DNA from: Candidatus Multivoradales bacterium
GTDB taxonomy: Bacteria > Acidobacteriota > Thermoanaerobaculia > Multivoradales > JAHEKO01
Reading direction: 5' to 3'
Length of the DNA stretch: 64,000 bases
Assembly (NCBI GenBank): GCA_965223155.1
Contig: CBDCVR010000015.1
Coordinates: forward strand, 512,001 to 576,000
A program made the translations under genes and the position numbers. The notes beneath the pieces were generated by a model. The model had not been told where the DNA came from, did not search any database, and saw only the letters and a list, made by a program, of their open reading frames with translations. This document shows, one piece after another, positions 5,532 to 33,930 of this stretch. The first letter of the stretch is position 1. Each line of letters starts with the position of its first letter.

Positions 5532-8129
5532 CTAGTTCGGATAGTAGCCTCGCAGTGTCCGGTTCCTCAACTTGCCGCCTTGCACCTCGAGCTCGACGGT
5601 CCGGAAGGCCTTGGGCCCAGGCGGCGCGTCCGAGCGGTAGGTCAAGAGGTACTGGGAGCGGAGTTCGGCCTCGATTTCTCGATAGACGTCCTGGAGCTCA
5701 TGGGCCCGGCGGATGAAGAACGCTCGCCCCCCGGTCTCGGTCGCGAGCAAGGCCAGCTTCCTGCGCACTCCCAGGCCGAGCGAGCCAATGTCCAAACCCA
5801 CGGTGTACACGACGATACCGCTCCGGCGAGCAAACTCGAGCGCGTCCTCGAAGGCATAGAGGCTCGCCGAGTCGTCACCGTCCGAGATCAGGATCAACGC
5901 CTTCTGGCCGCGCGCCGGCCCGAACGAGTACAGACTCGCAATCACCGCGTCGTGGAGCGCCGTCCAGCCGAGCGAGCGCAGCGACTCCAGTGCGATCCGA
6001 ACGGCTCCCAGGTCGGTGGTGGGAGGTACCAGGAGGAAGGGTTCGCGCGCGAACGCCGTCAGAAACGCCCGATCTCGGGGCCCGAGGACACTTTCGAGAA
6101 AGCCCAGGGCCGCCCGGCGGGCTTCCGGCAGGGACGTCGCCATCGACGAGGACGTGTCCAGAGCGAAGCCGACCGTTAGCGGCAGATCGCCGACGTGTTC
6201 GAGCCGATCGATAGTTTGCGGCCGACCGTCCTCGAAGACCGCGAAGTCCTCCGTCGCCAAACCGGATACCGGGCGGGCGTCCCGGTCGAGAACGGTCACC
6301 AGCATCTCCACGAGATGCACCTCCAATTCGTCGGAGAATTCGGGCTCGTGGAGAAAGCGCACCGCTTCGGTACGGCTACCGTCATCCAGAATCGCGACCA
6401 CGGTGAGGTAGGCGGTGGCATCGTCTTCGGGAACCTCGATCTCACCCTGGAGCTCGGCAGCCAGTTCTCCGCCGGCCCCCTCAGCGTCTTCACCCTCGAA
6501 CACCTCCACCAGCTCGTCGTTCACCCGGAGCTCCAGCCGGGTAAGGGACCGCGTCTCGGGCACCGCCACTTCCGCCCGAACCGAAATACGGCCGGAGACA
6601 GCTCGGTCGCCGTAGGGCTCGACGATGTGGATGGCGAAGGAGCCGGGCGCCTGGTTCAGGACCACCTCGTCCCAGGCGATCAAACGGCCGTCCCCGGCGT
6701 AGCCTTCTGCGCGAACGATCTGAACCCTCGGGAACCGAGCTAGCCGCAAGTCAGCGCGAAATGGAGGCTTGGTGCGCCGCTGCCGATCCTCACCGTCGAC
6801 CGAGAAGGTGACAGTAGTGATCTCATCGCCGCTGACAAGTGCCATCGCCTGCCAGGTGCCCAGAACGACCCGTCCATCCGAAGGGATGAGCAGGAGTCCG
6901 TTGCGCGCCGCCAGCGGCGCACGCTCGATCTCCTCGGCGCTCTCCACCACGTCGAAGCGTGCCGGCTCGTCCGGCTCGTCCGGATCGCCCGCGGTCTCCA
7001 CCGCTGCCGGCACCAGGACCCCCCGGTCGATCCTGGAGCGCCGACCGCTGACCTCGTCTTCCACCGCCAGGCGCCAGAGATAGGCTCGATTCGGCCGCAA
7101 CGCGCGCTCGAGAGCAAGGCCGAGCGGGATCTCGCGCTGGCGCGGCTCGGGGCGGTACCGGATACGGAAGCTCTCGAACCACTTCCCGTCCTGCTCGATC
7201 ACTCCCGACACGACGAGTCGATGCTCGGGCTCGCCGTCATCGCCTTCGACCGTGCCGAGCGCAATCTCTGCCGGTACCGACAGAAGGAGGCGGGTCACGA
7301 TCCGCTGACCCCGGGCCTGTGGGAAGCCGACGGTGGCAAGCGTCGCCTCCAGGCCATCGAACTCGGGCGTCTCGCTCGCAAGCGCCCGAGCCACCCAGTC
7401 GCCGAGCTCGACCGGCGCCTCCAACACTGCTAGTAGCTCTTCGTTCGTGGGCGGCTGCCGGACGCGAGACAGGCCCGCGATTCCGGTCGCCTCATCGACC
7501 CTAGCACCGTCCGGACACGCTTTGAGGTCGAATCTTCTGGCGCCGAACGGCAGCACCCGCGCCAACTCCTCTTGCTGCTCGAGCCAGTTCACCATCTCGT
7601 CGGTGTAGAGCGCTCGCTTCGAGTCGAGCGGCAACCATAATCGGTAGGGCTCTCCCGGTCGGGGCTCGAAGAACACCAACCGCTTCTCCGTAACCTCTTG
7701 CGGATACGCCCAGACCTCGAGGGGCCGGAAGGTCGTCCCGCACTCCACCTCGTACCGTTCCTGGGGTGCGCCGTATCTGAAAAACACGCGGGCGCGCTCG
7801 TCCAGCAGGGTCTCGAACCGAGTAAACACGAGTGCGCGGCGCCTGGCAATCGCCTCGACGAGCTCGTTGCCGGGAGTTTCCGGAACGGGATCCCGAGCCA
7901 GAAAGTCCTCGATCCAGCGCGAGCGCTCCTCCTCGTCGAGCGACAGCAGCCGGTCTCGGGTCGACTTGGCCACCAGGTGCCCGGGGCCATCCATGACGAA
8001 AGCCCGCTCCGGCTCCGGCCAGAGCGCGGGATCGACCGCGGCGACCACCGCCGCCGCGCCGCCGAGCACCAACGCTAGGCCGGCCGCCAGAATCGGAATC
8101 GTTCGCCCACTTCCAAACGGCGTAGTCAT
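5532..8129 (-). CDS. Secreted GWxTD-like / Ig-like / VWA domain protein
   Basis: Signal peptide; DERARVFFRYGAP (degenerate GWxTD); C-terminal VWA with MIDAS DTSSS, TALHDA, ILISDGDD, ETGGR, ELRSQYLLTY; GAGGAG RBS before ATG 8129. Confidence 0.8.
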   Translation of the reverse strand: MTTPFGSGRTIPILAAGLALVLGGAAAVVAAVDPALWPEPERAFVMDGPGHLVAKSTRDRLLSLDEEERSRWIEDFLARDPVPETPGNELVEAIARRRALVFTRFETLLDERARVFFRYGAPQERYEVECGTTFRPLEVWAYPQEVTEKRLVFFEPRPGEPYRLWLPLDSKRALYTDEMVNWLEQQEELARVLPFGARRFDLKACPDGARVDEATGIAGLSRVRQPPTNEELLAVLEAPVELGDWVARALASETPEFDGLEATLATVGFPQARGQRIVTRLLLSVPAEIALGTVEGDDGEPEHRLVVSGVIEQDGKWFESFRIRYRPEPRQREIPLGLALERALRPNRAYLWRLAVEDEVSGRRSRIDRGVLVPAAVETAGDPDEPDEPARFDVVESAEEIERAPLAARNGLLLIPSDGRVVLGTWQAMALVSGDEITTVTFSVDGEDRQRRTKPPFRADLRLARFPRVQIVRAEGYAGDGRLIAWDEVVLNQAPGSFAIHIVEPYGDRAVSGRISVRAEVAVPETRSLTRLELRVNDELVEVFEGEDAEGAGGELAAELQGEIEVPEDDATAYLTVVAILDDGSRTEAVRFLHEPEFSDELEVHLVEMLVTVLDRDARPVSGLATEDFAVFEDGRPQTIDRLEHVGDLPLTVGFALDTSSSMATSLPEARRAALGFLESVLGPRDRAFLTAFAREPFLLVPPTTDLGAVRIALESLRSLGWTALHDAVIASLYSFGPARGQKALILISDGDDSASLYAFEDALEFARRSGIVVYTVGLDIGSLGLGVRRKLALLATETGGRAFFIRRAHELQDVYREIEAELRSQYLLTYRSDAPPGPKAFRTVELEVQGGKLRNRTLRGYYPN

Positions 8130-23544: not shown

Positions 23545-24483
23545 CTAGGTCAAGCGATCCAGCAACAACCCGGCAAAAAGCGCGGGCAGGTAGAGCACTG
23601 AAACGAGCATGAGCCGGCGCGCGCTGGCCCGCTCGGGGGCGCGGGCGAAGGACACGGTAGCGGCCAGGAAGACGGCACCCAGAGCCAGAGCGCCCAGGAG
23701 ATACCCGCTGCCGGCGAGGCCCAGCGCTGTCGGCAGGAGGCTTACCGGCAGCAAGGCCACCGCGTACATCAGAGCCTGGCGCGAGGTCGACTTGCCGTCC
23801 GGGTGAATGACCGGGAGCATCGGGAAGCCGGCCCGCGCGTAGTCGTGCCGGCACAGCCACGCGATCGCCAGAAAATGCGGCAGTTGCCAAAGAAACAGGA
23901 TGGCAAAGAGCGCCCACGCGCCGGCGCCGAGCGCGCCTCGAGCCGCAGTCCAGCCCATGACCGGCGGCAGCGCCCCGGGCACCGCGCCCACCAAGGTCGC
24001 CAGCGAAGACACCCGCTTGAGCGGGGTATAGACCCAGACGTAGCTGACGAAGGCCAAGACCGCCAGACCCGCGGTCAGCGTATTGACCCAGAACCAGAGG
24101 GCGAGGACCCCAAAGCTTCCGGCAGAGACGCCCAGCGCCATCGCCCAGCCCGGACTCAGCCGACCGGCGGGCAGCGGCCGGTCGCGGGTCCGTTCCATCT
24201 TGGCGTCCAGATGGCGCTCGCCGTGGTGGTTGAGCGCCGACGCGCCCGCCGAGACCAGCGCCGTCCCCACGACCGTCCACACCAGCCGCGGCCAGTCGAT
24301 CTCGGCTCTCGAACCCAGGACGAAGCCCATCGCCGCGGTTACGGCGACCAGGAACGTGATTCGGGGCTTGGTGAGCTGATAGAAATCCCAGGCCCGGCCC
24401 CGGTCGTCTTGACTCGGGTCTGTCGGGCTCGGGTCTGTCGGGCTCAAGCCGGGCCGATCCGGATCGTCGGCGCGATCGCTCAC
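23545..24483 (-). CDS. ctaB: Protoheme IX farnesyltransferase (heme O synthase)
   Basis: LTKPRI, DAKMERTRDRPLP, YTPLKR, GAVPGALPPVMGW, WQLPHF, DYARAGFPMLP. Confidence 0.95.
   Translation of the reverse strand: MSDRADDPDRPGLSPTDPSPTDPSQDDRGRAWDFYQLTKPRITFLVAVTAAMGFVLGSRAEIDWPRLVWTVVGTALVSAGASALNHHGERHLDAKMERTRDRPLPAGRLSPGWAMALGVSAGSFGVLALWFWVNTLTAGLAVLAFVSYVWVYTPLKRVSSLATLVGAVPGALPPVMGWTAARGALGAGAWALFAILFLWQLPHFLAIAWLCRHDYARAGFPMLPVIHPDGKSTSRQALMYAVALLPVSLLPTALGLAGSGYLLGALALGAVFLAATVSFARAPERASARRLMLVSVLYLPALFAGLLLDRLT
24413..24445. repeat. 15-bp tandem duplication in the 5' end of ctaB (SPTDP x2)
   Basis: ctcgggtctgtcggg repeated twice. Confidence 0.6.
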
Positions 24484-25490
24484 GACGCCGCTTCCTGGCC
24501 CAGAGCTTCCGGCAGAGACGCCGCCGACGCGGCCGGCTCCCGGCCAAGCCGCCCGGCGGCCAAGGCCAGGATCAAGCAGGTCGCCAGGATCGCCGCTCCG
24601 GTCGCCACGTGCGCGGTGTTGGGCACAACGGCCTTGCCGGTTAGAACCACGGTGGCGCCGAGCGTGATCTGGGCGACGACCAAGACGCCCAGGGCGTAAC
24701 CCGGCAGCCGCACCACCGGCACCACGATGCCGCTTCGCGCCACCCGGTACACGCAGACCGCGATCGCCGCCGTCACCACCACGGCACCGATCCTGTGGGC
24801 AAAGTGGATCGCGATCGGAAAGTCGAAGCTCGGCGGGATCAGGCGGCCGAAAGCCAGAGGGAAATCCGGGATCGCGAGACCGGCACCGCTATGGCGCATG
24901 ACCGCTCCCAGCAGAATCTGGACGTACACCAGCCCGGTAGCCGCCGCGGCGGCCTGGAACACGGGACGCGCCCGCCGATCCAGCCGCGGCGGCCGACGCC
25001 ACCAGCTCGAAGTCGTGACCGCCATCGTCACGCACAGGCAGAAAAAGATCTGGGCCAATCCGGCATGGCTGACCGAGATCGGGGTGGGCAGAAAGTAGAG
25101 CACGGTCAAGCCGCCGAGGAGCGCCTGGGTGAGTACTGCCGCAACCGCGCCGTAGCTGAGCCGCCGCAGCCAGACCCGCGGCTCGCGGCGAGCCATGGAC
25201 ACCGCCAGCCCAACCGTCAACAGCGCCACGGTGCCGGCGATCAGGCGGTGGCCGTGCTCGGCACGCACGTTGGCGATTTGCCACCAACGGGGAGGATTGA
25301 GCGAGCCGTAAGACAGCGGCCAGTCCGGGACCGAGAGCCCGGCCTCGCGGCTGGTGACGAGGGCTCCGGCCGAGATCAGCAACAGCACCAGGCACGCCAG
25401 CGCCGTTGCGTAGCGGTGTAGCCACGTCGGCGTGTGCCCGGCTACGGTCTCCTCACCGCCTGGATCACCGGAGCGAACGTTGCGGCTCAT
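24480..25490 (-). CDS. ctaA: Heme A synthase (COX15/CtaA)
   Basis: GALVTS..AGLSVPDWP, EHGHR, SVSH, QILLGAVMRH, HFAHR, TAHV; eight TM helices; overlaps the ctaB start. Confidence 0.9.
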   Translation of the reverse strand: MSRNVRSGDPGGEETVAGHTPTWLHRYATALACLVLLLISAGALVTSREAGLSVPDWPLSYGSLNPPRWWQIANVRAEHGHRLIAGTVALLTVGLAVSMARREPRVWLRRLSYGAVAAVLTQALLGGLTVLYFLPTPISVSHAGLAQIFFCLCVTMAVTTSSWWRRPPRLDRRARPVFQAAAAATGLVYVQILLGAVMRHSGAGLAIPDFPLAFGRLIPPSFDFPIAIHFAHRIGAVVVTAAIAVCVYRVARSGIVVPVVRLPGYALGVLVVAQITLGATVVLTGKAVVPNTAHVATGAAILATCLILALAAGRLGREPAASAASLPEALGQEAAS

Positions 25491-25571
25491 CGATTCAGTG
25501 TACCGGCTTTTGGCGGCATTTGGCGGCACCCGCGCCCCCCGGCGGGCTCGTTACGCCGAGCCTGAACATGA

Positions 25572-25580
25572 TGTTACTAT
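25572..25580 (+). promoter_or_regulatory. Putative extended -10 promoter (TG-T-TACTAT) of the mscS-FHA/kinase operon
   Basis: TGnTAnnnT match in an AT-richer patch about 75 bp upstream of GTG 25656. Confidence 0.45.
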
Positions 25581-25655
25581 CCGCCTTTCACTCAGGCGCT
25601 GAACACCGGGCGGGAGTGGACCCGATATGGTGACTCGCAACAACGGAGCGAAGCA

Positions 25656-26981
25656 GTGAGTCTGACCCTGGCGATCTTGGCCGGGCTGGCGACAGCTGCG
25701 GTTCTCTGGTTTCTGATCCGGCTGGCGACCCAGCGGAGCAAGCTCGCCCGCAGCCTGGCCTTCCCGCTCCACGTCGGTGCCTTCGTCGCCGGCCTCGAGG
25801 TCTTCTCGCTGTTCGAGATCCCGAGAGTGCGGGCGGCCGTCCCGCAACTGGATCTCGTCTTGTCGGCGGTCTTCGTTTTCTTGATCGCGGTGGTGGCGCT
25901 CCGGTTGCTGGCTCTCCTCTTCTTCGATCTCTACCTGCATGCGACCCAAGGCGTGCGGTTGCCACCCCTGCTGCCGCGAGTGGTCACCGGCTTCGCCTAC
26001 CTGATCGGCGCCCTGGTGGTAGTCAAGCTCTTCTGGCCCGAACAAGAGATGGGCGCCCTGGTCGCCACCAGCGCGGTTACTTCTCTGGTCCTGGGTCTCG
26101 CGCTGCAACCGATTCTGGGGAACTTCTTCGCCGGCATCGTAATCAGCCTGGAGAAGCCCTTCCGGATCAACGACTGGATCCTGTTTCAGGACACCGAGGC
26201 CCGGGTGGTCGAGATCAACTGGCGCACCACGCACCTGCGCACCCGCGACAACGACAATCTGGTGATCCCGAACGGGATGATCGCCAACGAGCAGATCACC
26301 AACTTCTTCTATCCCCATCCCCTGCACCTGGAACGGATCTACGTCGGGGTCCACTACAAGACGCCTCCGTACCGGGTCAAGCAAGCGATCCTGGACGCCA
26401 TCGCCGAGGTTCCGAGCATCCTCGAAAAGCCGTCGCCGGAGGTCTATCTCCACTCCTTCGACGACAGCGCCATCACCTACGAGGTCCGCATCTGGATCGA
26501 GGACATTGCCCACCGACCCCGCATCTCGAGTCATCTCAAGAGCATGATCTGGGAGAAGTTCCAGCGCCGGCACATCACCATCCCGTATCCCATTCGGACC
26601 CTGGAGATCGAGCCCGCCCGCGGCCAGCTTGAACTGGTGCGGGGGCAGCGCCGGCAGATCGACGAGATCGGCGAAACCGCCTTCCCGGCCAAGCTCTTCG
26701 TCGCCCGCGGTCCCGATCGCGGCCGCACCGTCGCCTTGCGGGGAACGGACGTCACCGTCGGACGGTCCGGCGAATCGGATCTAGTCCTGACCGAGGCCCG
26801 GGCCAGCGGCAACCACTTTTCCGTCGTCTGGCAGCCGGAGATAGGGTACGAGATCCAGGACAACGAAAGCCGCAACGGCACCCTAGTCAACGAACAGCCG
26901 ATCGAGACCCAGGTGCTCGCGCACCTCGACCGCGTCCAGATCGGCGAAACCGTCATCGTCTTCGAGTCGAGCCATGTCTGA
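25656..26981 (+). CDS. MscS-family mechanosensitive channel fused to a C-terminal FHA domain
   Basis: MscS core: VLGLALQPILGNFFAGI..EKPFRINDWI..V.EINWRTT..IPNG..ITIPYP. FHA: VTVGR..S.NH..D.ESRNGTLVN..DRVQIGET. Confidence 0.9.
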   Translation: MSLTLAILAGLATAAVLWFLIRLATQRSKLARSLAFPLHVGAFVAGLEVFSLFEIPRVRAAVPQLDLVLSAVFVFLIAVVALRLLALLFFDLYLHATQGVRLPPLLPRVVTGFAYLIGALVVVKLFWPEQEMGALVATSAVTSLVLGLALQPILGNFFAGIVISLEKPFRINDWILFQDTEARVVEINWRTTHLRTRDNDNLVIPNGMIANEQITNFFYPHPLHLERIYVGVHYKTPPYRVKQAILDAIAEVPSILEKPSPEVYLHSFDDSAITYEVRIWIEDIAHRPRISSHLKSMIWEKFQRRHITIPYPIRTLEIEPARGQLELVRGQRRQIDEIGETAFPAKLFVARGPDRGRTVALRGTDVTVGRSGESDLVLTEARASGNHFSVVWQPEIGYEIQDNESRNGTLVNEQPIETQVLAHLDRVQIGETVIVFESSHV

Positions 26982-28893
26982 AGAAACACATCCACGCCGC
27001 ATCGGCCAATACGAGATCCTGGGCGTCATCGGCAAGGGCGCCATGGGCAAGGTCTACAAGGGCGTCCAGCCGTCGCTCAATAGGATCGTCGCCATCAAGG
27101 TCCTACCGCCAGAGCTCGCCGACGACGAGCGAGTCGAGCGCTTTAGCCGCGAAGCCAAAGCGGTAGCGCTCTTGAACCACCCCAACGTGGTCCAAATCAT
27201 CGACAAGGACCAGGACGGGGACCAGGTCTTCTTCGTCATGGAGTACGTCGCCGGCACCTCGCTCGAGGCCGTGATGCGCAAGCGGCGGTTGTCGCTGCCC
27301 GAGGCAGTTCGTGTCTTCAAAGCCGTCTGCCGGGGCATGGCCGCCGCCCACAAGAAAGAGATCGTCCATCGGGACCTTTCGCCCCGGAACGTGCTTGTGA
27401 CCGAGGACCTGCTGACCGCCAAGATCGCCGACTTCGGGATCAGCCGGGTGGAGTCCATCTCGCGCGAGATGGGCACGCTGTCGACCAGCGAAGTGAGCAT
27501 GGGCACGCTTCACTACATGGCTCCGGAGCAGGCGCAGGACATGGCGTCCTCGGATCACCGAAGCGACATCTACTCCTTGGGAGTCTTGCTCTACGAGATG
27601 CTGACCGGCCGGGTACCGGTTGGCCGCTTCAGCCTGCCCAGCCAGCTCAACTCGGAGGTTCCCCCCGAGGTCGATCCTGTCGTCCTCCGCTGCCTGGAGG
27701 CCGACCCGGCCGACCGCTATCAGGAGGTCTCAAAGCTCCTGGCCGACGTCGAGCGGCTGGAAGACCACCTCAAGCTGGGCCTGGTCAACGAGGTCCGTGG
27801 TCTGTCCCAGTCGACCTCCAAGATCATCATCAAGTCGGCCAGAACCCGGGCCGTGCAAATTGCCGTCGGCCTCGCCGTTCTCGCGGGACTGGCCGCGGCC
27901 GGCGTCTGGATCGTGCGCAGCAAGGCTCCCGAGCCGGTACCGACCGCGGGCGGCGACGCGCTAGTGGCGGTCAAGCAGGACCGCTCCGGACTCAAGGAGC
28001 GGGAGGATCGCTTACCGGCGCTCGTCGATTTGGACGTCCCCGAATCCTCGGTCCCGACCGAGGATGCCGAAGAGGCCACCGTCCAAGTCGAGACCCCGGT
28101 CAAGACGCAGCAACCAGCGGCGCGAGGCGAGACCGAAGCCGAAGCGAACGAGCGCCGGGCGGCGGCAGCTCTAGAGGGCGCGATCGCCAGGATGAACGGC
28201 CAGGAATGGGATCGGGCGATCGGCGAGTTGGATGCGCTGATGGCAAGCGAACCGCCGGCGAGCATCGGCCGCCAGGCATTGCTTCTGCTCGGCAAGGCGC
28301 ACGAGCGCAAGCGTGACGACGGCAAGGCCCGGACGGCCTATCTCGACCTGGATCGCCGCTACCCGGGCAGCACCGAGGCCGCCGAAGGTCTCTACCGGTT
28401 GGCTTCCAAGCTCCAGAAGCAAGGTGGGCGTGACCGATTGCGGGAGGCCCGGACCTATCTGGACAAGATCGCGAACGACTACTCCTCCTCCAACTGGGCG
28501 CCCAGGGCCTTGATCGACAAGGCCGTCATCGAGAAGGACGCCAAGTGGCACGTCGACGATCCCGTCCTGAAGGCCCGGGTTCCGGCAGCCCTCGTCAGCT
28601 ACCGCCAGTTCGTCGCCAAGTACCCCAGCCACGCCCAGGCACCGATGGCGCTCAACGCCCTCGGCGATCTCTACGAGGACGAGAAACTGCCGGCCAAGGC
28701 GGCGGCCACGTTCGAGACCCTGGCCAGGCGATTCCCCGCCAATCCCTACGACGCCTGGTGGAAGGCCGCGCAGGTCTACGACCGGCGCCTGGACCAGTTC
28801 GACAAGGCGATCACAGCCTACGAAAACGTGCCGAAATCCTCGAAACGCTTCCCGGACGCGCAGCGACGGATCGTCCGCTTGAAGCGCAAGTAG
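26974..28893 (+). CDS. Membrane Hanks-type Ser/Thr kinase with periplasmic TPR (BamD/CpoB-like) domain
   Basis: GKGAMG, VAIK, FSREA, HPNVV, HRDLSPRN, DFG, GTLHYMAPE, DIYSLG; one TM helix; TPR units ending YPGS/YSSS/YPSH/FPAN; 8-bp overlap with mscS-FHA. Confidence 0.93.
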   Translation: MSEETHPRRIGQYEILGVIGKGAMGKVYKGVQPSLNRIVAIKVLPPELADDERVERFSREAKAVALLNHPNVVQIIDKDQDGDQVFFVMEYVAGTSLEAVMRKRRLSLPEAVRVFKAVCRGMAAAHKKEIVHRDLSPRNVLVTEDLLTAKIADFGISRVESISREMGTLSTSEVSMGTLHYMAPEQAQDMASSDHRSDIYSLGVLLYEMLTGRVPVGRFSLPSQLNSEVPPEVDPVVLRCLEADPADRYQEVSKLLADVERLEDHLKLGLVNEVRGLSQSTSKIIIKSARTRAVQIAVGLAVLAGLAAAGVWIVRSKAPEPVPTAGGDALVAVKQDRSGLKEREDRLPALVDLDVPESSVPTEDAEEATVQVETPVKTQQPAARGETEAEANERRAAAALEGAIARMNGQEWDRAIGELDALMASEPPASIGRQALLLLGKAHERKRDDGKARTAYLDLDRRYPGSTEAAEGLYRLASKLQKQGGRDRLREARTYLDKIANDYSSSNWAPRALIDKAVIEKDAKWHVDDPVLKARVPAALVSYRQFVAKYPSHAQAPMALNALGDLYEDEKLPAKAAATFETLARRFPANPYDAWWKAAQVYDRRLDQFDKAITAYENVPKSSKRFPDAQRRIVRLKRK

Positions 28894-28987
28894 CCATCCG
28901 CCCGCGGGCTCGCTCCGGGCTCGGCCCGGGCCCGGCCACGGATCCGAGCAACGACCCGAGTGACCGTCGTCTCGCGCCCGCGGCCCG

Positions 28988-29023
28988 AATAAGAAACGGC
29001 CGGCCCCGAAACGGGACCGGCCG
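28988..29023 (-). terminator. Rho-independent terminator of the Rieske/cytochrome b operon
   Basis: Minus-strand hairpin CGGCCGGTCCCG-TTT-CGGGGCCGGCCG followed by TTTCTTATT. Confidence 0.75.
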
Positions 29024-29051
29024 CATCGAACTGTGGGAACTGATCGGTAGC

Positions 29052-29828
29052 CTAGCCGGCCGAGCTGAACTCGAAGGCAGCGGCGGCGGCGCTATCCGCG
29101 GCGACCGAGACCGACACGGTCTGGGTGCCAAGGGTCTCGTGCCAGGCCTCGAGAACGTAGTCGCCCGCGGGCAGACCGTCGATCTCAAAGGAACCGTCCG
29201 CGCCGGTGACGGCGAAGAACGGATGGTCCAGCACCGCCATGTAGGCAGCCATCCACGGGTGGACGTCGCACTTGAAGCGGACCATGACCTCGGGATTGTC
29301 GAACTGCTTCTCGAGCTCCATGCCCTGGAAGGGTTGTCCCTGGTTGAACTCGTCGTTGTTCGTGGGCAGCGCGTGCACGTTGTGGAGCGTCGGATCGCTG
29401 TTGCGGACGACAATCTTCTGGCCCACCATGACGCCCGAAACGTGCGGGGTGTACTTGCAACCCTGCTGATCCAGAACGTGGGCGTCAGCCGGCGCCTGAT
29501 AGCTTCCGCTCAGCCCTTCTTTGACGTAGACGAACACGTTGCCGAGCTTGCCGTCGGCGGTGACCACGGACTCCGTCTCCACCGCTCCGGTGTGCAGTCC
29601 GGCGCAAACCGGATCGGCGTCCATCTTGATCACCGTGTCCGGGTCGCCGTTCGTGTAGTTGACCAGACCGGTCACCGTGCCTACGCCTTCGGCGGGCGTG
29701 GCCGGAGCGGGCGCGGGAGCGCTGCTCTCCTCGGCGACGGTTCCCGAGTCTCCGGCACCTCCGCCGCACGCGGCGAGAGCGACGAGAAAAACGATTCCAG
29801 AAAACGCAATCCAGCGATTCTTGTGCAT
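29052..29828 (-). CDS. Lipoprotein with cupredoxin-like (His..CDVHPWM) and carboxypeptidase-regulatory-like domains
   Basis: Lipobox LAAC; DPVC, LDQQGCKYTPH, NSDPTLHNVH, KCDVHPWM, PFFAVT..G.F.I.GLPAG.Y...WHE. Confidence 0.8.
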   Translation of the reverse strand: MHKNRWIAFSGIVFLVALAACGGGAGDSGTVAEESSAPAPAPATPAEGVGTVTGLVNYTNGDPDTVIKMDADPVCAGLHTGAVETESVVTADGKLGNVFVYVKEGLSGSYQAPADAHVLDQQGCKYTPHVSGVMVGQKIVVRNSDPTLHNVHALPTNNDEFNQGQPFQGMELEKQFDNPEVMVRFKCDVHPWMAAYMAVLDHPFFAVTGADGSFEIDGLPAGDYVLEAWHETLGTQTVSVSVAADSAAAAAFEFSSAG

Positions 29829-29906: not shown

Positions 29907-32840
29907 CTATTCGAGATTCCACCAGATGTGATCGCGCAGCGCAACCGCAACCTGGTCGGTGTCCGCCAGGAACTCCTTGAGCTCGGCATCGGACGTGAAG
30001 TGCCGCATCATCTCGGCCTTCTGGGCCGCGAACATGGGGGCGTCGATGGCGTTCGCCAGCGGCGACTGGTAGCTGCCGTCGGCGAGCTTCTGGAAGTTGG
30101 CGGGCATGTTGGTGCCGCGCACCCAGCTCTGGGGATCCTTGATCCAGTCGGGAACCCAATCGTGCCGCAGGCGGTCCCGGGCCAGAAGCAGCGACGGCGC
30201 CAGCTCGGCCGAGCTCACGCCCGCGGCTCCGGCCGCCTGCGGACCGGCCGGATGGCACTTGGCGCACTGCAGCATGTTGAAGGTCACCCGGCCCACGGTC
30301 TGGTTGCGGGCGCTGGGGCGCTGGGGCGCCGACAGGAACGCCGTCCTGCCGTCGCGGGCCGAAAAATACGCCAAGAGCGAGTTGACCTGGCCATCGGCGA
30401 AATCAAAGGTCGGCATGCGCACCGAGAGCCAGGGACGCATCGTCTCCGAGGCCGGATCGTGTAGGTAGTCGAACAGCCAGTCGGACTGGACCCGGGCGCC
30501 CTGGGCGGCCAGGTTGGGAGGCAGCAGGCCGACGTCGTCGATCGCCGTCTTGATGGCGTGCCCCTGGTCCTCGATCAGATGGCAACCCTTGCAGTTGTAG
30601 CTGGTGATGAGCTTGCGGCCGGCGGCCACGGCGGCGGAGTCGCTCGCCTGATTGGCTCGGCGGCTTGCGACCACCGAGTCCTTGGTAAAGCCCAGGACGT
30701 TGGCGAGGACGGCCTCCGCCTCCCGCTCGGACATGCCGAAGTTGGGCATCCGGTAGAGCTCGTTGTAGCTCTTGACCGACTCTTTGCCCTCGTCCCAGAC
30801 TCGCGGCTCGAGCAGCTTGTGCTTGATCCAGTCGTGCCTGGTGTGCGGCACGTCGTGGACGTGGCCGAAATCGAACTGATGGACGGGCTTCGAGCCTTCC
30901 TCGGTGAGCTCGACGCCGATGGGCTTGGCGTTCTCGAAGCCGGCCACGTCGTGGCAGCCCCAGCAGCCATACTTCTGGATCGTCTCTTCACCCAGGTAGA
31001 CGTTGCGCTCGACCTCGTCCATGGCTTCCATCGCCGCCACGCTCTGGTCGTAGGTGAGGTTGTTGCGCAGATAGCCCAGGACCAGCTCATCCCGGAACTC
31101 GGCGTTGATCGCCGGCACCTCCAGGCCTTCCCAGTCCGCGTCCCGCCCGGTCAGCAAGTAGGCGGTGATGTCGGCGGCCTCCCGGTCAGTGAGCCGCAGG
31201 CTGGGCATGCGCGACTCGGGGTTGTACTGCTTGGGATCCTTGAGCCAGGCGTACAGCCAAGGCGCCGAGAGCTTGCTGCCCGCCCGAATCAGGTTCGGAC
31301 CGTGCAGGCGGTTGATCTGTGGAAAGAAGTCGTCGCGCTTGGCTTCCAGGTCTTGGACGTGGCAGCCAAGGCAGCCGACGGATTCGAAGAGCTCGCGACC
31401 GCGCGCCGGGTTGCCCGCGGGAGCCGCCGGGTAGCTCACGTCCTCCGATTGCGACCAGAGGTAGGCGACGATGCCGGCGATCTCGGCCTCCTGGCGGGCC
31501 AGATTCTCGGGCGTGGTGGTATTGGGCTCGAAGAAGAAGTGCGGCATCCAGGTGGTGGGCCGGAACTCCCGCGGCGCGGCGATCCACTTGTAGGCGAAGC
31601 CGGGATCGATCTTCGAGGCCACCTTGCGCAGCGACGGTCCCGGCCGGAGCAGGTCGCGGTAGGCCTCGTAATCGATCTTGTGGCAGACATAGCAACCCAT
31701 CTTGGTGACCAGCTGCCGTCCGGCGTCCTGGAGCTCCGAGCCCGAGGTCCAGGCGTTGCCCTCGTGGCAGCCGATGCAGCCGGCTTCCGAGTACTTGGCC
31801 GGGAGGATCGGCGTATCGAGATACTTCTGCGGCTTCCAACCCCACTTCTTCTTCCACTCGGCCTTCTCTTCTTCGCTCTCGGGCGAATGGCCGGCGCGGG
31901 CGAAGTCAGTGGCTCGGTCGAGACCGCCATGGCAGGTGGTGCAACCGAAGGTCGCGTAGGGATGGGGCGAGCCTGCCGAAAGGAAGAGATCCAGCCTGGG
32001 ATGGCTACGGAACGGCTCCTCCCACTCCTCGCCCTCGAAGCCGCTCCGGGTCGAGCCCAGGTGGCAGGTCACGCACCGGTCTACCCGATCCACGTTGGTG
32101 AAGTTGATGTCGTTGTAGAGGCCTGACAGGATCACCTGCTCGATTTTGAGATCGGGCTGGACGAAGTCCATGAAGGGCGCGTTCAGGACGAAGTAGTCGA
32201 GCTTCTTGTCCAGGTTGGCGACTCGCTGCTCGAGCCCGTCGAGGCCCGAGCGCAGCGCCGCCAGCTTGCTGTCAGCGGCGTCCAGGCCCGAGCGCTCGGC
32301 CTCGAGCTGACTCTCCAGCTCGGCTTCCCGGACGCGCAGAGCTTCCAGCTCACGCAGCTCCCCTTCGAGCTTGGCCCCAAGCTCGTCGTTTTCCCGCTTC
32401 CGCGTCTCGATGCGCTTGGCCTTGCCGCTCTGGAGCGCGACGTCGTACTCGTAGCGCGCGGTGTCGAGCTTGGACTTGGTGGCCCGCGAGGCCGCATCCA
32501 CGATGTAGATCTGTTTGGCGGTGGCTTCGAGGTCGCCTTCCAGGGCCTCGAGATCGGCCTTGCGGTCGGCGAGCGCCGTCTCTTCGGCCGCGATCTCCTC
32601 CCGAATCTGGCGGATCTCATTGTCGCTGAGGCTCTGCTTTTCGGCCTCGGCCTCGGCCACCAGCATCTGCTGCTCGCGCTCCCGGAACTCGGACTGGAGT
32701 CGTTTCCAGGGCTTGGCGTAGTCGTCGAAGACCATCCACAGCGTTGTCGCCAGGAGCGCGATCGAGCTCCACGCGAAGACCGCGTTCAGACTGCGGAAGT
32801 TGTAGTGCCGGTCGGGAATCTTCTTGGGCGCCTTGGACAT
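29907..32840 (-). CDS. Membrane-anchored octaheme c-type cytochrome subunit of the Rieske/cytochrome b complex
   Basis: N-terminal TM helix, long coiled coil, eight CxxCH (CVTCH, CTTCH, CIGCH, CYVCH, CLGCH, CWGCH, CKGCH, CAKCH), repeated GPxL..W..P..MP modules. Confidence 0.9.
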   Translation of the reverse strand: MSKAPKKIPDRHYNFRSLNAVFAWSSIALLATTLWMVFDDYAKPWKRLQSEFREREQQMLVAEAEAEKQSLSDNEIRQIREEIAAEETALADRKADLEALEGDLEATAKQIYIVDAASRATKSKLDTARYEYDVALQSGKAKRIETRKRENDELGAKLEGELRELEALRVREAELESQLEAERSGLDAADSKLAALRSGLDGLEQRVANLDKKLDYFVLNAPFMDFVQPDLKIEQVILSGLYNDINFTNVDRVDRCVTCHLGSTRSGFEGEEWEEPFRSHPRLDLFLSAGSPHPYATFGCTTCHGGLDRATDFARAGHSPESEEEKAEWKKKWGWKPQKYLDTPILPAKYSEAGCIGCHEGNAWTSGSELQDAGRQLVTKMGCYVCHKIDYEAYRDLLRPGPSLRKVASKIDPGFAYKWIAAPREFRPTTWMPHFFFEPNTTTPENLARQEAEIAGIVAYLWSQSEDVSYPAAPAGNPARGRELFESVGCLGCHVQDLEAKRDDFFPQINRLHGPNLIRAGSKLSAPWLYAWLKDPKQYNPESRMPSLRLTDREAADITAYLLTGRDADWEGLEVPAINAEFRDELVLGYLRNNLTYDQSVAAMEAMDEVERNVYLGEETIQKYGCWGCHDVAGFENAKPIGVELTEEGSKPVHQFDFGHVHDVPHTRHDWIKHKLLEPRVWDEGKESVKSYNELYRMPNFGMSEREAEAVLANVLGFTKDSVVASRRANQASDSAAVAAGRKLITSYNCKGCHLIEDQGHAIKTAIDDVGLLPPNLAAQGARVQSDWLFDYLHDPASETMRPWLSVRMPTFDFADGQVNSLLAYFSARDGRTAFLSAPQRPSARNQTVGRVTFNMLQCAKCHPAGPQAAGAAGVSSAELAPSLLLARDRLRHDWVPDWIKDPQSWVRGTNMPANFQKLADGSYQSPLANAIDAPMFAAQKAEMMRHFTSDAELKEFLADTDQVAVALRDHIWWNLE

Positions 32841-32850
32841 CGATCGGGCC

Positions 32851-33930
32851 TTACAGGTTCAGGAAGAATTCCTGGATGTGAACGAAGTACTTCAAGTTGA
32901 AGATCCAGCGCAGGAACATCTTGATCGGCAAGAGCATCATGGTCAGAAACAGGCTCATGCCGACGTAGTAGCGCGGCGGCCCCATCTCGTCGTAGAAGCG
33001 CTTGATGTATTGCAACTTGATGAGAGCGACCGGCAGCACGAAGAAATAGCCCAGCATGAGCACGATGCCGAGGCTCTCCCGGATGATCCAGTGGGACGGC
33101 AGGCCCATCCCGAGGATCTTGATCCAGAAGATCTCGGACAGATCCACGTTGACCAGAGGCTCGATCTTGTTGACGTCCCAGAACTCGTAGGGACCGAAGA
33201 AGTTCCAGTTGGGCCCGCGCAGGAAGGTGCCGATGACGATGAGCTGGACCCAGAGGACGACGAAGCCGAACAAGAACAGGATGATCTCGGTCTTGCGTTC
33301 CTTGAAGGTGTAGTAACCGTTGCCCTTGGGATTGGTGTCGATGTACGGGATCGCCATCAAGCCGACGATGATGAGCCCCGGCAGAACCACCCCCGCCATC
33401 CAGGGATCGAAATAGACCAGCATTTCCTGGAGCCCCAGGAAGTACCACGGCGCCTTGGAAGGGTTCGGAGCCACCGACAGGTTGGCCGGCTCTTCGAGCG
33501 GCGCCTTGAGCACGATCGACCAGATCACCATCCCCACCGTCAGGATCACCATGCAGATGAACTCGGAGAAGACCAGGTCGGGCCAGGTGAAAATCTTGTC
33601 CTCGGACTCGCTCTTTTCGAACGTCGGCTCGCCGCGGTCGATGGCCTCATCGTTCTGGATGGCCTTGTACATCGCCAGCCACCAAAAGTAGCCGACGAGG
33701 TAGACCATCATCACGATGGGCACGTTGTCGGGCTTGGCCACGACCTCGCGAAAGGTCGGATCGAACGAGCTGACCACGAAAAACAGGGTCATCAGGATCA
33801 GCATGATCCAGCCGCCGGTCTTGGTCCAAAGCCACTTGGACTTGACCGCCAGCCAGAAGAGGATCAGGGAAAGGGTGAAGGAATACTGCGGGTACGAGAG
33901 GGTATTGATGAATCCCTTGATCGCTTCCAT
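32851..33930 (-). CDS. Cytochrome b C-terminal part (subunit IV/QcrC-like) with extra TM helices
   Basis: FTWPDLV, APLEEPAN..PNPSKAPWYFLGLQEML (APWY at the PEWY position), PYID. Confidence 0.85.
   Translation of the reverse strand: MEAIKGFINTLSYPQYSFTLSLILFWLAVKSKWLWTKTGGWIMLILMTLFFVVSSFDPTFREVVAKPDNVPIVMMVYLVGYFWWLAMYKAIQNDEAIDRGEPTFEKSESEDKIFTWPDLVFSEFICMVILTVGMVIWSIVLKAPLEEPANLSVAPNPSKAPWYFLGLQEMLVYFDPWMAGVVLPGLIIVGLMAIPYIDTNPKGNGYYTFKERKTEIILFLFGFVVLWVQLIVIGTFLRGPNWNFFGPYEFWDVNKIEPLVNVDLSEIFWIKILGMGLPSHWIIRESLGIVLMLGYFFVLPVALIKLQYIKRFYDEMGPPRYYVGMSLFLTMMLLPIKMFLRWIFNLKYFVHIQEFFLNL

Follow-up and report, generated by a model that had tools for sequence, protein, structure and literature searches.

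A conserved gene pair of Acidobacteriota that joins an MscS-FHA channel to a Hanks-type kinase or pseudokinase, a candidate case of channel control by protein phosphorylation

The 64,000-nucleotide stretch of the genome of Candidatus Multivoradales bacterium that is analyzed here (hereafter, the window) contains, at positions 25656–28893, two overlapping genes on the forward strand, the first of which encodes an MscS-type channel with a C-terminal FHA domain (MscS-FHA) and the second a membrane-anchored Hanks-type serine/threonine kinase. The locus is a self-contained two-gene cassette that is conserved across genomes. The two open reading frames (ORFs) and their overlapping stop and start codons lie at the coordinates reported in a preliminary description of this DNA; the channel ORF terminates with ...SSHV-stop, the kinase ORF opens with MSEE, and the overlap of 8 nucleotides (nt) indicates translational coupling of the two genes. 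An identical overlap (-8) connects the channel and kinase genes in 8 other loci. The genes and their parts, with amino acids abbreviated as aa, transmembrane as TM, the predicted local distance difference test score as pLDDT, and AlphaFold models as AF2, are the following.

25656..26981, + strand: MscS-FHA channel gene, ORF of 441 aa with a GTG start; Pfam MS_channel_2nd, MS_channel_3rd and FHA
25656..26150, + strand: membrane domain of the channel, residues 1-165; helices 2-27, 35-51, 65-98 and 105-126, then the pore helix 133-165
26175..26567, + strand: cytoplasmic vestibule, beta and alpha-beta domains, residues 174-304; from Pfam, PDB, the model and Foldseek
26592..26657, + strand: disordered tether, residues 313-334; pLDDT <50, length differs among relatives
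26688..26969, + strand: FHA domain, residues 345-438; AlphaFold fold, with G369-R370, S384-G385-N386-H387 and S405-R-N407-G-T409
26974..26981, + strand: stop/start overlap ATGTCTGA, 8 nt common to the channel and kinase ORFs
26974..28893, + strand: Hanks-type kinase gene, ORF of 639 aa with an ATG start; from Pfam, NCBIfam and AF2
26974..27723, + strand: kinase domain, residues 1-250; GKGAMG loop, K42, E60, H132-R-D134, N139 and D153-F-G present
27430..27528, + strand: activation segment, residues 153-185; T168 at 27475-27477, T171 at 27484-27486
27727..27921, + strand: long helix, residues 252-316; amphipathic juxtamembrane segment, STSKI, and TM helix 296-314 (27859-27915)
27922..28128, + strand: disordered acidic and Pro-rich linker, residues 317-385; periplasmic as judged from the single TM helix
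28135..28887, + strand: TPR domain, residues 388-638; pLDDT 96-98, YbgF/CpoB- and BamD-like

The channel protein matches the Pfam families MS_channel_2nd (residues 153-217, E 4e-22, 78.5 bits, cut-off 20.2), MS_channel_3rd (residues 228-309, E 1.7e-12, 48 bits, cut-off 21) and FHA (PF00498; residues 366-430, E 8.4e-14, 52.2 bits, cut-off 20.7). All three hidden Markov models (HMMs) score above their cut-offs, which bears out the proposed architecture of an MscS core ending in an FHA domain and disposes of the earlier reservation that the C-terminal domain might fail the FHA HMM. Among the proteins in the PDB, the sequence matches are MscS, YnaI, MscM and MscK, with E-values down to 2.6e-24. 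The AF2 monomer model (46-sequence alignment, mean pLDDT 87.9) has MscK, MscS and YnaI as its top Foldseek matches, with YbiO, MSL1 and MSL10 also found, and none of the descriptions of the fold matches listed for this model mentions an FHA domain. The alignment with Escherichia coli MscS (6rld) is gapless, residue r of the window channel being E. coli (Ec) r-39, so that Q151, N156 and G160 correspond to Ec Q112, N117 and G121, and L144 and L148 to Ec L105 and L109, which form the hydrophobic seal of MscS. L144 and L148 are each at least 90% conserved in the 46 sequences, and the pore seal looks intact; by homology, the channel is presumably heptameric.

Sequence comparison assigns the channel to the branch of the MscS family that includes the cyclic nucleotide-gated channels of bacteria (bCNG channels), in which the MscS core is combined with a cyclic nucleotide monophosphate (cNMP)-binding domain. 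The MscS-FHA fusion is represented by 791 proteins at E <= 1e-3, with MscS and FHA Pfam domains in 120 of 120 among the matches listed; the few named ones come from metagenome-assembled genomes (MAGs) of Thermoanaerobaculia or Acidobacteriota and are annotated only as mechanosensitive channels. In a search of 1.84 billion proteins, the next-best representatives after a few MscS-FHA clusters are proteins of ~500 aa that combine MscS with cNMP_binding (16 of the 16 sampled), and the divergent representatives that span the full length have the FHA domain (6 of 6). Plain MscS paralogs from the window's own genome match the channel far more weakly, at E 2.6e-27 or weaker. The comparison with bCNG channels made in the preliminary description is thus firmer than an analogy, as these channels appear to be the nearest relatives of the channel core. 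In both, the core is homologous and the regulatory domain is C-terminal, below the vestibule; the window channel differs in having no Pfam match to cNMP_binding, with the FHA domain in its place, and in its adjacent kinase gene, which is found at none of the 51 loci that match the channel core and lack the FHA domain.

The FHA fold at 26688-26969 agrees with the earlier placement at about 26690-26970. All three signature blocks of FHA domains, GR, SxxH and NG as given in PMC4238996, are present. In the alignment with GarA, GR is kept, S-G-N-H replaces the S-R-R-H of GarA, and S-R-N-G-T replaces S-L-N-G-T, so the residues had been read correctly before as GR, S, H and NGT with Gly in place of the Arg that follows Ser. 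The closest solved relatives are GarA/OdhI (2e-10), followed by an FHA domain of Rv1747 (E 1.5e-8); the Pfam family Yop-YscD_cpl scores 53.1 bits on the same domain, compared with 52.2 for FHA. Across the family, G369 and R370 are invariant (40 of 40 channels), and S384 and H387 are each found in 39 of 40. Residue 385 (26808-26810) is Lys in 35 of the 40 and Gly in the window; in a smaller alignment (A1), it is Lys in 12 of 18 sequences.

The kinase matches Pfam Pkinase at residues 13-217 (E 4e-48, 164.5 bits), and the top Foldseek match of its AF2 model (mean pLDDT 86.3) is PknB in the PknB-GarA complex 6i2p. Its description as an intact Hanks kinase stands for the GKGAMG loop, K42, E60, D134, N139 and D153 but not for the catalytic loop, HRDLSPRN (27367-27390), which lacks the Lys of HRDxKxxN and has an Arg at D+4. 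Such an Arg might compensate for the missing Lys, a pattern seen in tyrosine kinases. The genome encodes 17 Hanks kinases, of which 15 have HRDxKPxN and 2 the Ser form (the window kinase and one on contig C14). Judged from the catalytic motifs alone, the window kinase is apparently active. Residues 166-173 of the activation loop are disordered and exposed in the model (pLDDT <50), and a 53-aa query made of the activation segment has no match in the PDB. The one TM helix of the preliminary description is predicted at residues 296-314, preceded by STSKI at residues 280-284. As for the periplasmic TPRs, said to be BamD/CpoB-like, a TPR domain is indeed there (TPR_6 50 bits, cut-off 26.3, with TPR_16 matched as well), but the likeness is resemblance and not membership because the NCBIfam scores all fall below their cut-offs (YbgF 65 versus 90.1, BamD 52.2 versus 81.4, CpoB 35.8 versus 383 bits). 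The amphipathic juxtamembrane helix at residues 252-279 (27727-27810) follows a consensus of approximately L-E-x-x-L-R-L-x-L-x-x-E-x-R-G that is conserved in partners with and without catalytic residues; it may be an element of dimerization or of contact with the channel.

The pairing of the two genes was traced in relatives that include MAGs, with the longest ORFs taken as genes. A full-length ortholog of the channel is present in 10 of 40 relatives, the unpublished genome G005 being part of this set, and in 0 of 4 genomes of the same genus; in 10 of 10 ortholog loci, a kinase gene on the same strand lies directly downstream. An adjacent kinase is found at 0 of 22 loci of FHA-less MscS paralogs in the same relatives (one of the 22, L017, comes from G005). 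Among 401 sampled genomes of the phylum, 13 encode the fusion, including the window's genome (G000) and two already counted; the kinase is present at 9 of 9 new scorable loci, and 2 more loci are unscorable at a contig edge. A search of named genomes with alignment A1 as the query, where a single-protein query had found no relative, yielded 28 MscS-FHA loci, all labeled as Acidobacteriota (Thermoanaerobaculia, Holophagales and 'Ca. Multivoradales'), with a kinase domain next to the channel at 26 of 26 scorable loci. With three of the named loci discounted as repeats of loci already counted, the total is 42 paired loci out of 42 distinct, scorable, non-self loci of Acidobacteriota; at FHA-less relatives overall, the count is 0 of 73, made up of the 22 paralog loci and the 51 loci that match the channel core only. 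An additional locus, L093 (1118-4167), labeled as a MAG of Thermodesulfobacteriota, has the reverse order: the gene for a 575-aa kinase comes first, and a gap of 30 nt separates it from the gene for an MscS-FHA protein of 430 aa; this kinase has Pkinase and TPR_6 domains, canonical HRDIKPAN, DFG and a TM helix. The linkage of channel and kinase has outlasted this change of gene order, and the question whether MscS-FHA homologs are linked to kinases is answered by the 42 loci together with the reversed one. Indirect support for co-location comes from ~20 kinase homologs that share the size of the longest contig with an MscS-FHA homolog. Clustering of all ORFs from 20 loci yields no conserved gene besides the two, and such other clusters as are shared consist of shadow ORFs that overlap them; the respiratory neighbors of the pair in the window are therefore incidental.

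In the genome as a whole, the phospho-signaling set consists, apart from the Hanks kinases, of 5 FHA domains, one PP2C_2 phosphatase and one FHA-GAF-SpoIIE (PP2C-type) phosphatase. The latter is a candidate eraser directed at phosphothreonine (pThr). It is encoded on contig C14 (L148, G000:C14:456500-466500; phosphatase at 6386-8023), 3.5 kb downstream of a plain MscS paralog (1749-2837), and this arrangement was considered as a split version of the fusion and set aside, with three ORFs without a Pfam match separating the two genes and no link shown. At G000:C14:480120-483019, a second FHA ORF (746-aa open frame) lies ~2 kb upstream of a Hanks kinase (897-aa open frame), an ordinary FHA-kinase neighborhood.

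The partner kinases differ strongly in the state of the catalytic site. Forty partners, the window's included, were classified as 'intact' or 'degenerate' by motifs alone, with the truncated ORFs L056, L057 and L062 and three duplicates left out. The combination of K42, D134, N139 and D153 is found in 8 of the 40 (the window, L045, L047, L048, L050, L052, L055 and L083), and together with the GxGxxG loop in only three (the window, L045 and L050). The catalytic D134 is kept in 11 of 40 partners and in 3 of the 32 degenerate ones; Lys at D+2 occurs in 3 of 40, all three without D134. The degenerate partners are still conserved, the mean pairwise identity of the C-lobe being 0.46 among them compared with 0.55 among the intact ones. 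Every complete partner has a single hydrophobic segment after the kinase domain (17/17 and 25/25 ORFs), so that both members of the cassette are membrane-anchored in all cases; ~28 of the 40 partners are proteins of <=360 aa that end with this segment and so have no periplasmic domain. Going by these features, most partners are tail-anchored pseudokinases without a sensor, and the window carries the rarer form, a kinase with intact motifs and a TPR sensor, which is new here together with its relation to the dead forms.

What is retained in the dead partners is the activation loop. The Thr/Ser-rich stretch pointed out in the preliminary description, GTLSTSEVSMGT, begins at kinase residue 167 and contains two positions that are conserved across the family, T168, with Thr in 34 of 40 partners and Ser in 3 more, and T171, with Thr in 32 of 40 and Ser in 2 more; each threonine is kept in 26 of the 32 degenerate partners. 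Position 174 is I, L, V or M in 28 of 40 partners and in 22 of 32 degenerate ones. The other site proposed at the outset, the juxtamembrane T-x-x-I of STSKI, is present in the window (residue 280), but its Thr is found in only 9 of 40 partners. On the channel side, Lys385 occurs in 31 of 32 channels with dead partners versus 4 of 8 with intact partners, and N407 (26874-26876) in 1 of 32 versus 4 of 8, which suggests that the ligand-binding surface of the FHA domain co-varies with the state of the partner, a pattern confounded by phylogeny.

A quick tree of 43 rows (38 pairs, L093 and 4 bCNG outgroups, with L054 and L063 left out for their split channel ORFs; Shimodaira-Hasegawa-like approximate likelihood ratio support only) places L093, with a long-branch warning, as the sister to all Acidobacteriota pairs. 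The intact partners are located on basal branches, apart from one pair (L052/L083) nested inside a mostly dead clade, and the minimum number of changes between the intact and dead states is 3. The approximately unbiased (AU) test rejects the 30 rows with dead partners as one group (delta lnL, the difference in log-likelihood, 86; p-AU 2.7e-10), a group that was named after the tree had been seen, though it is defined by the partner residues. Thus, catalytic loss was not a single event. The simplest reading, under the assumption that catalytic residues are not regained, is an ancestral active kinase with a TM helix and TPRs that decayed repeatedly; the form found in the window is probably ancestral.

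Across the genus, a single site either holds the cassette, lacks it or holds a decayed version of it. In G001 (L144, G001:C23) and G004 (L146, G004:C52), the genes for cytochrome c, the lipoprotein, ctaA and ctaB are contiguous, leaving clean empty sites. In G002 (L145, G002:C515, 2398-3664), ctaB and ctaA are present, and only the FHA part of the channel (residues 324-437) lies directly beside ctaA, followed by a kinase that is 72% identical to that of the window and is intact except for one in-frame TAG inside the activation loop; this locus reflects either decay of the cassette or a mistake in sequencing or assembly. Channel and kinase genes are gained or lost together in this genus.

In the window, the flanks of the cassette are made up of the following features.

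23545..24483, - strand: ctaB/UbiA, divergent, upstream of the channel gene
24480..25529, - strand: ctaA/COX15, divergent, upstream of the channel gene
25530..25655, no strand: divergent intergenic region of 126 nt, from ctaA to the channel gene
28996..29024, - strand: GC-rich hairpin, T-run on the minus strand, in the gap where the kinase and lipoprotein genes converge
29052..29828, - strand: lipoprotein-like ORF, convergent, downstream of the kinase gene
29907..32840, - strand: multihaem cytochrome c of 977 aa, convergent, downstream of the kinase gene

As noted earlier, the pair opposes its respiratory flanks: ctaA and ctaB, the lipoprotein-like ORF and the cytochrome c gene are all on the opposite strand. 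The promoter of the pair must lie within the 126-nt divergent gap, where GGAG at 25645-25648, 7 nt 5' of the GTG of the channel gene, was read by eye; the putative promoter of the preliminary description was left unconfirmed by a scan of 25300-29300 for the sigma-70 consensus, which gave 0 sites (0.3 expected). The hairpin at 28996-29024 marks the end of the two-gene unit. An imperfect direct repeat of 20 nt (80% identity; 25536-25555 and 28898-28917) brackets the cassette almost exactly but is probably due to chance, as 45 families of short repeats, this one included, occur in 3.7 kb of GC-rich DNA. Next to the cytochrome c gene, a polytopic membrane ORF of 359 aa (32851-33930, - strand) has a G+C content of ~0.585-0.59 compared with ~0.65-0.70 around it. 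The whole window, 1-64000, contains no tRNA or tmRNA genes and no Rfam families at gathering score.

From the architecture, the pairing, the conservation and the homology to bCNG channels, GarA and PknB, we infer how phosphorylation, binding, the direction of the signal and the effect on the channel might be connected. In the favored reading, whose probability is put at about 0.5, the FHA domains on their tethers bind the kinase at its phosphorylated activation loop, in the manner of GarA and PknB, and modulate the channel. The activation loop would be phosphorylated on T171 and/or T168: in the window, through autophosphorylation by the kinase, possibly on an envelope cue that is read by the TPR domain, and in the pseudokinase lineages, by other kinases acting in trans. 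The FHA domains of the channel would dock on the phosphorylated loop as the FHA domain of GarA docks on the activation loop of PknB, which would link the kinase or pseudokinase, itself anchored in the membrane, to the channel's lower face. The behavior of the channel, that is, its gating threshold, the conductance of the vestibule or its clustering, would be altered by analogy with Rv1747 and with bCNG channels, which are presumably modified by their C-terminal cNMP domain. The original proposal of an envelope signal followed by kinase autophosphorylation can accordingly describe the lineage of the window but not the family, in which catalytic residues are kept in 8 of 40 partners and ~28 of 40 have no periplasmic domain.

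Docking on the activation loop is favored on the strength of matches to solved structures: GarA/OdhI are the relatives of the FHA domain, the PknB-GarA complex is the structural match of the kinase, and pThr is the ligand in the FHA pocket. In the PknB-GarA complex, the activation-loop pThr of PknB occupies the phosphate pocket of the GarA FHA domain (PMC8339232, citing Wagner et al. 2019). By the spacing to the Gly at P+1, S170-T171-S172 of the window kinase covers the positions mutated in activation-loop variants of StkP, and T171 is no more than one residue away from the positions where autophosphorylation usually occurs; T171-S-E-V is the candidate docking site of the FHA domain, which is of a type that presumably prefers hydrophobic residues at pT+3.

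Several observations weigh against this reading. The activity of the window kinase is not assured because its catalytic loop lacks the Lys, and the phosphate pocket of the window FHA domain is one basic contact short because of the Gly at 385. The retention of the activation-loop threonines is no more than suggestive because such threonines are generic to Hanks kinases, and the counterpart of T171 in the L093 kinase is an Arg that is immediately preceded by Thr. The co-variation between the FHA domain and its partner suffers from the phylogenetic confounding mentioned above, the cases without Lys385 falling into one loosely supported group of the tree. Finally, the flexible tether in the model argues against a rigid gating ring and would fit a recruiting role equally well.

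If the signal ran in the opposite direction, the channel would be the sensor or scaffold, and tension or a change in conformation would move the tethered FHA domains so that they recruit and activate the kinase for other targets. The channel would then be the sole sensory element of most pairs, considering that ~28 of 40 partners are tail-anchored without an extracytoplasmic sensor, and FHA domains are capable of activating a kinase, as docking on PknB rearranges its activation loop and helix alpha-C so that they form a platform for substrate docking (PMC8339232). However, phosphotransfer could not carry a signal onward in the 32 of 40 partners that lack catalytic residues, the loss of these residues was not one event (p-AU 2.7e-10 in the AU test), and the window kinase has a TPR sensor of its own, which together make this direction of flow unlikely.

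Somewhat less probable still is a switch in cis or between subunits like that of GarA or Rv1747, in which the kinase would phosphorylate a Thr of the channel linker (T341 in 'GET') and the FHA domain would bind it within or between heptamers. The FHA domain is most similar to those of GarA/OdhI and to one of Rv1747, and a disordered linker precedes it; in Mycobacterium tuberculosis, PknF phosphorylates two threonines of the Rv1747 linker that are bound by Rv1747's own FHA domains (PMC3138270), and phosphorylation drives the clustering of Rv1747 (PMC10906006). In the present family, however, the linker varies in length and sequence, and the alignments contain no conserved Thr column; moreover, such a switch requires a kinase, yet most partners are dead, and the maintenance of a dead kinase beside the channel in every genome is left unexplained.

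It would be still more surprising if the FHA domain were a phosphate-independent structural module, like that of YscD in the type III secretion system, with the kinase or pseudokinase serving as a fixed auxiliary subunit of the channel. The Yop-YscD_cpl score that is on par with that of FHA (53.1 versus 52.2 bits), the prevalence of pseudokinases among the partners and Gly385 in the window are all compatible with such a module. It is hard to reconcile with the phosphate-binding Arg in 40 of 40 channels and the Ser in 39 of 40, with a Lys385 that is strictest where the partner is dead (31/32), or with the activation-loop threonines that the dead partners retain. Adjacency of two unrelated genes without functional meaning is hardly credible given the 42 of 42 paired loci over several families, the one reversed locus, the 0 of 73 FHA-less relatives, the overlapping stop and start codons and the gain or loss of the pair as a unit in the genus.

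The described system with the most similar layout is PknF-Rv1747 of M. tuberculosis, where an FHA-bearing membrane transport protein and a single-pass Hanks kinase likewise form a two-gene operon. Rv1747 is modulated by phosphorylation, with other kinases substituting in a pknF deletion (PMC3138270), and docking on the activation loop has been proposed for PknF and the FHA domains of Rv1747 (PMC8339232). The differences are that Rv1747 is an ABC exporter with two N-terminal FHA domains, whereas the window encodes an MscS-type channel with one C-terminal FHA domain per subunit, and that the family of the window has no conserved linker threonines and a partner kinase that is dead in most lineages. 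PknB-GarA (6I2P) provides the closest solved relatives of both halves, GarA for the FHA domain and PknB by the structure of the kinase; GarA, however, is a small, soluble metabolic regulator that is itself a substrate, whereas the FHA domain of the window is fused to a channel and has S-G-N-H in place of S-R-R-H.

The majority form of the family, with a dead partner (32/40), finds its match in MviN-FhaA of mycobacteria, in which MviN, a MurJ-type flippase with a pseudokinase domain, is phosphorylated in trans by another kinase and read by the FHA domain of FhaA (PMC11898655, citing Gee et al. 2012). In that system, transporter and pseudokinase share one polypeptide and the FHA protein stands apart, whereas in the cassette the channel carries the FHA domain and the kinase or pseudokinase is a protein of its own; the window partner, in addition, keeps its catalytic residues and so is not of the dead-kinase type. 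Among the channels themselves, the signaling output of the MscS-like MSL10 of Arabidopsis depends on phosphosites in its N-terminus (bioRxiv 10.1101/726521). MSL10, whose structures are among the fold matches of the window channel, is thus also an MscS-family channel with phosphorylation in a soluble terminal region, but it is eukaryotic, carries the phosphosites on the channel itself and has neither an FHA domain nor a dedicated adjacent kinase gene.

The usual view of MscS-type channels in bacteria is that of safety valves gated by tension. Searches of open-access papers and preprints gave no account of an MscS-FHA fusion or of a kinase coupled to a bacterial MscS channel; FHA and MscS are mentioned in unrelated contexts in the available text of PMC13463886, PMC2754498 and PMC10734462. 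The available text of a September 2026 review of MscS-like channels (PMC13591265) has 0 occurrences of FHA, forkhead, kinase or phosphoryl-. According to the same text, bCNG channels did not protect E. coli from downshock and have no solved structures, and the roles of bCNG-type relatives are termed poorly explored.

A broader view, held tentatively and with considerable doubt, is that MscS-FHA proteins are channels gated by protein phosphorylation, a bCNG branch in which cNMP has been replaced by the phosphorylated loop of a dedicated kinase or pseudokinase subunit. The window would then preserve the ancestral circuit, in which a kinase with a periplasmic TPR sensor directly opens or closes a solute valve according to the state of the envelope, and in most relatives the kinase would have been pared down to a phospho-acceptor subunit that other kinases write on. 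If true, the cassette would connect Hanks-type Ser/Thr signaling directly to a bacterial MscS-family channel for the first time, and it suggests a possible role for the non-canonical bCNG branch. The intact cassette, the empty site and the decayed remnant provide natural controls in one genus, and the family offers natural gradations between a sensor kinase that is apparently active and pseudokinases that are tail-anchored, which are useful for the study of pseudokinase evolution under a reader-ligand relationship. The conserved pairing points to an unstudied link of protein phosphorylation with bacterial ion channels.

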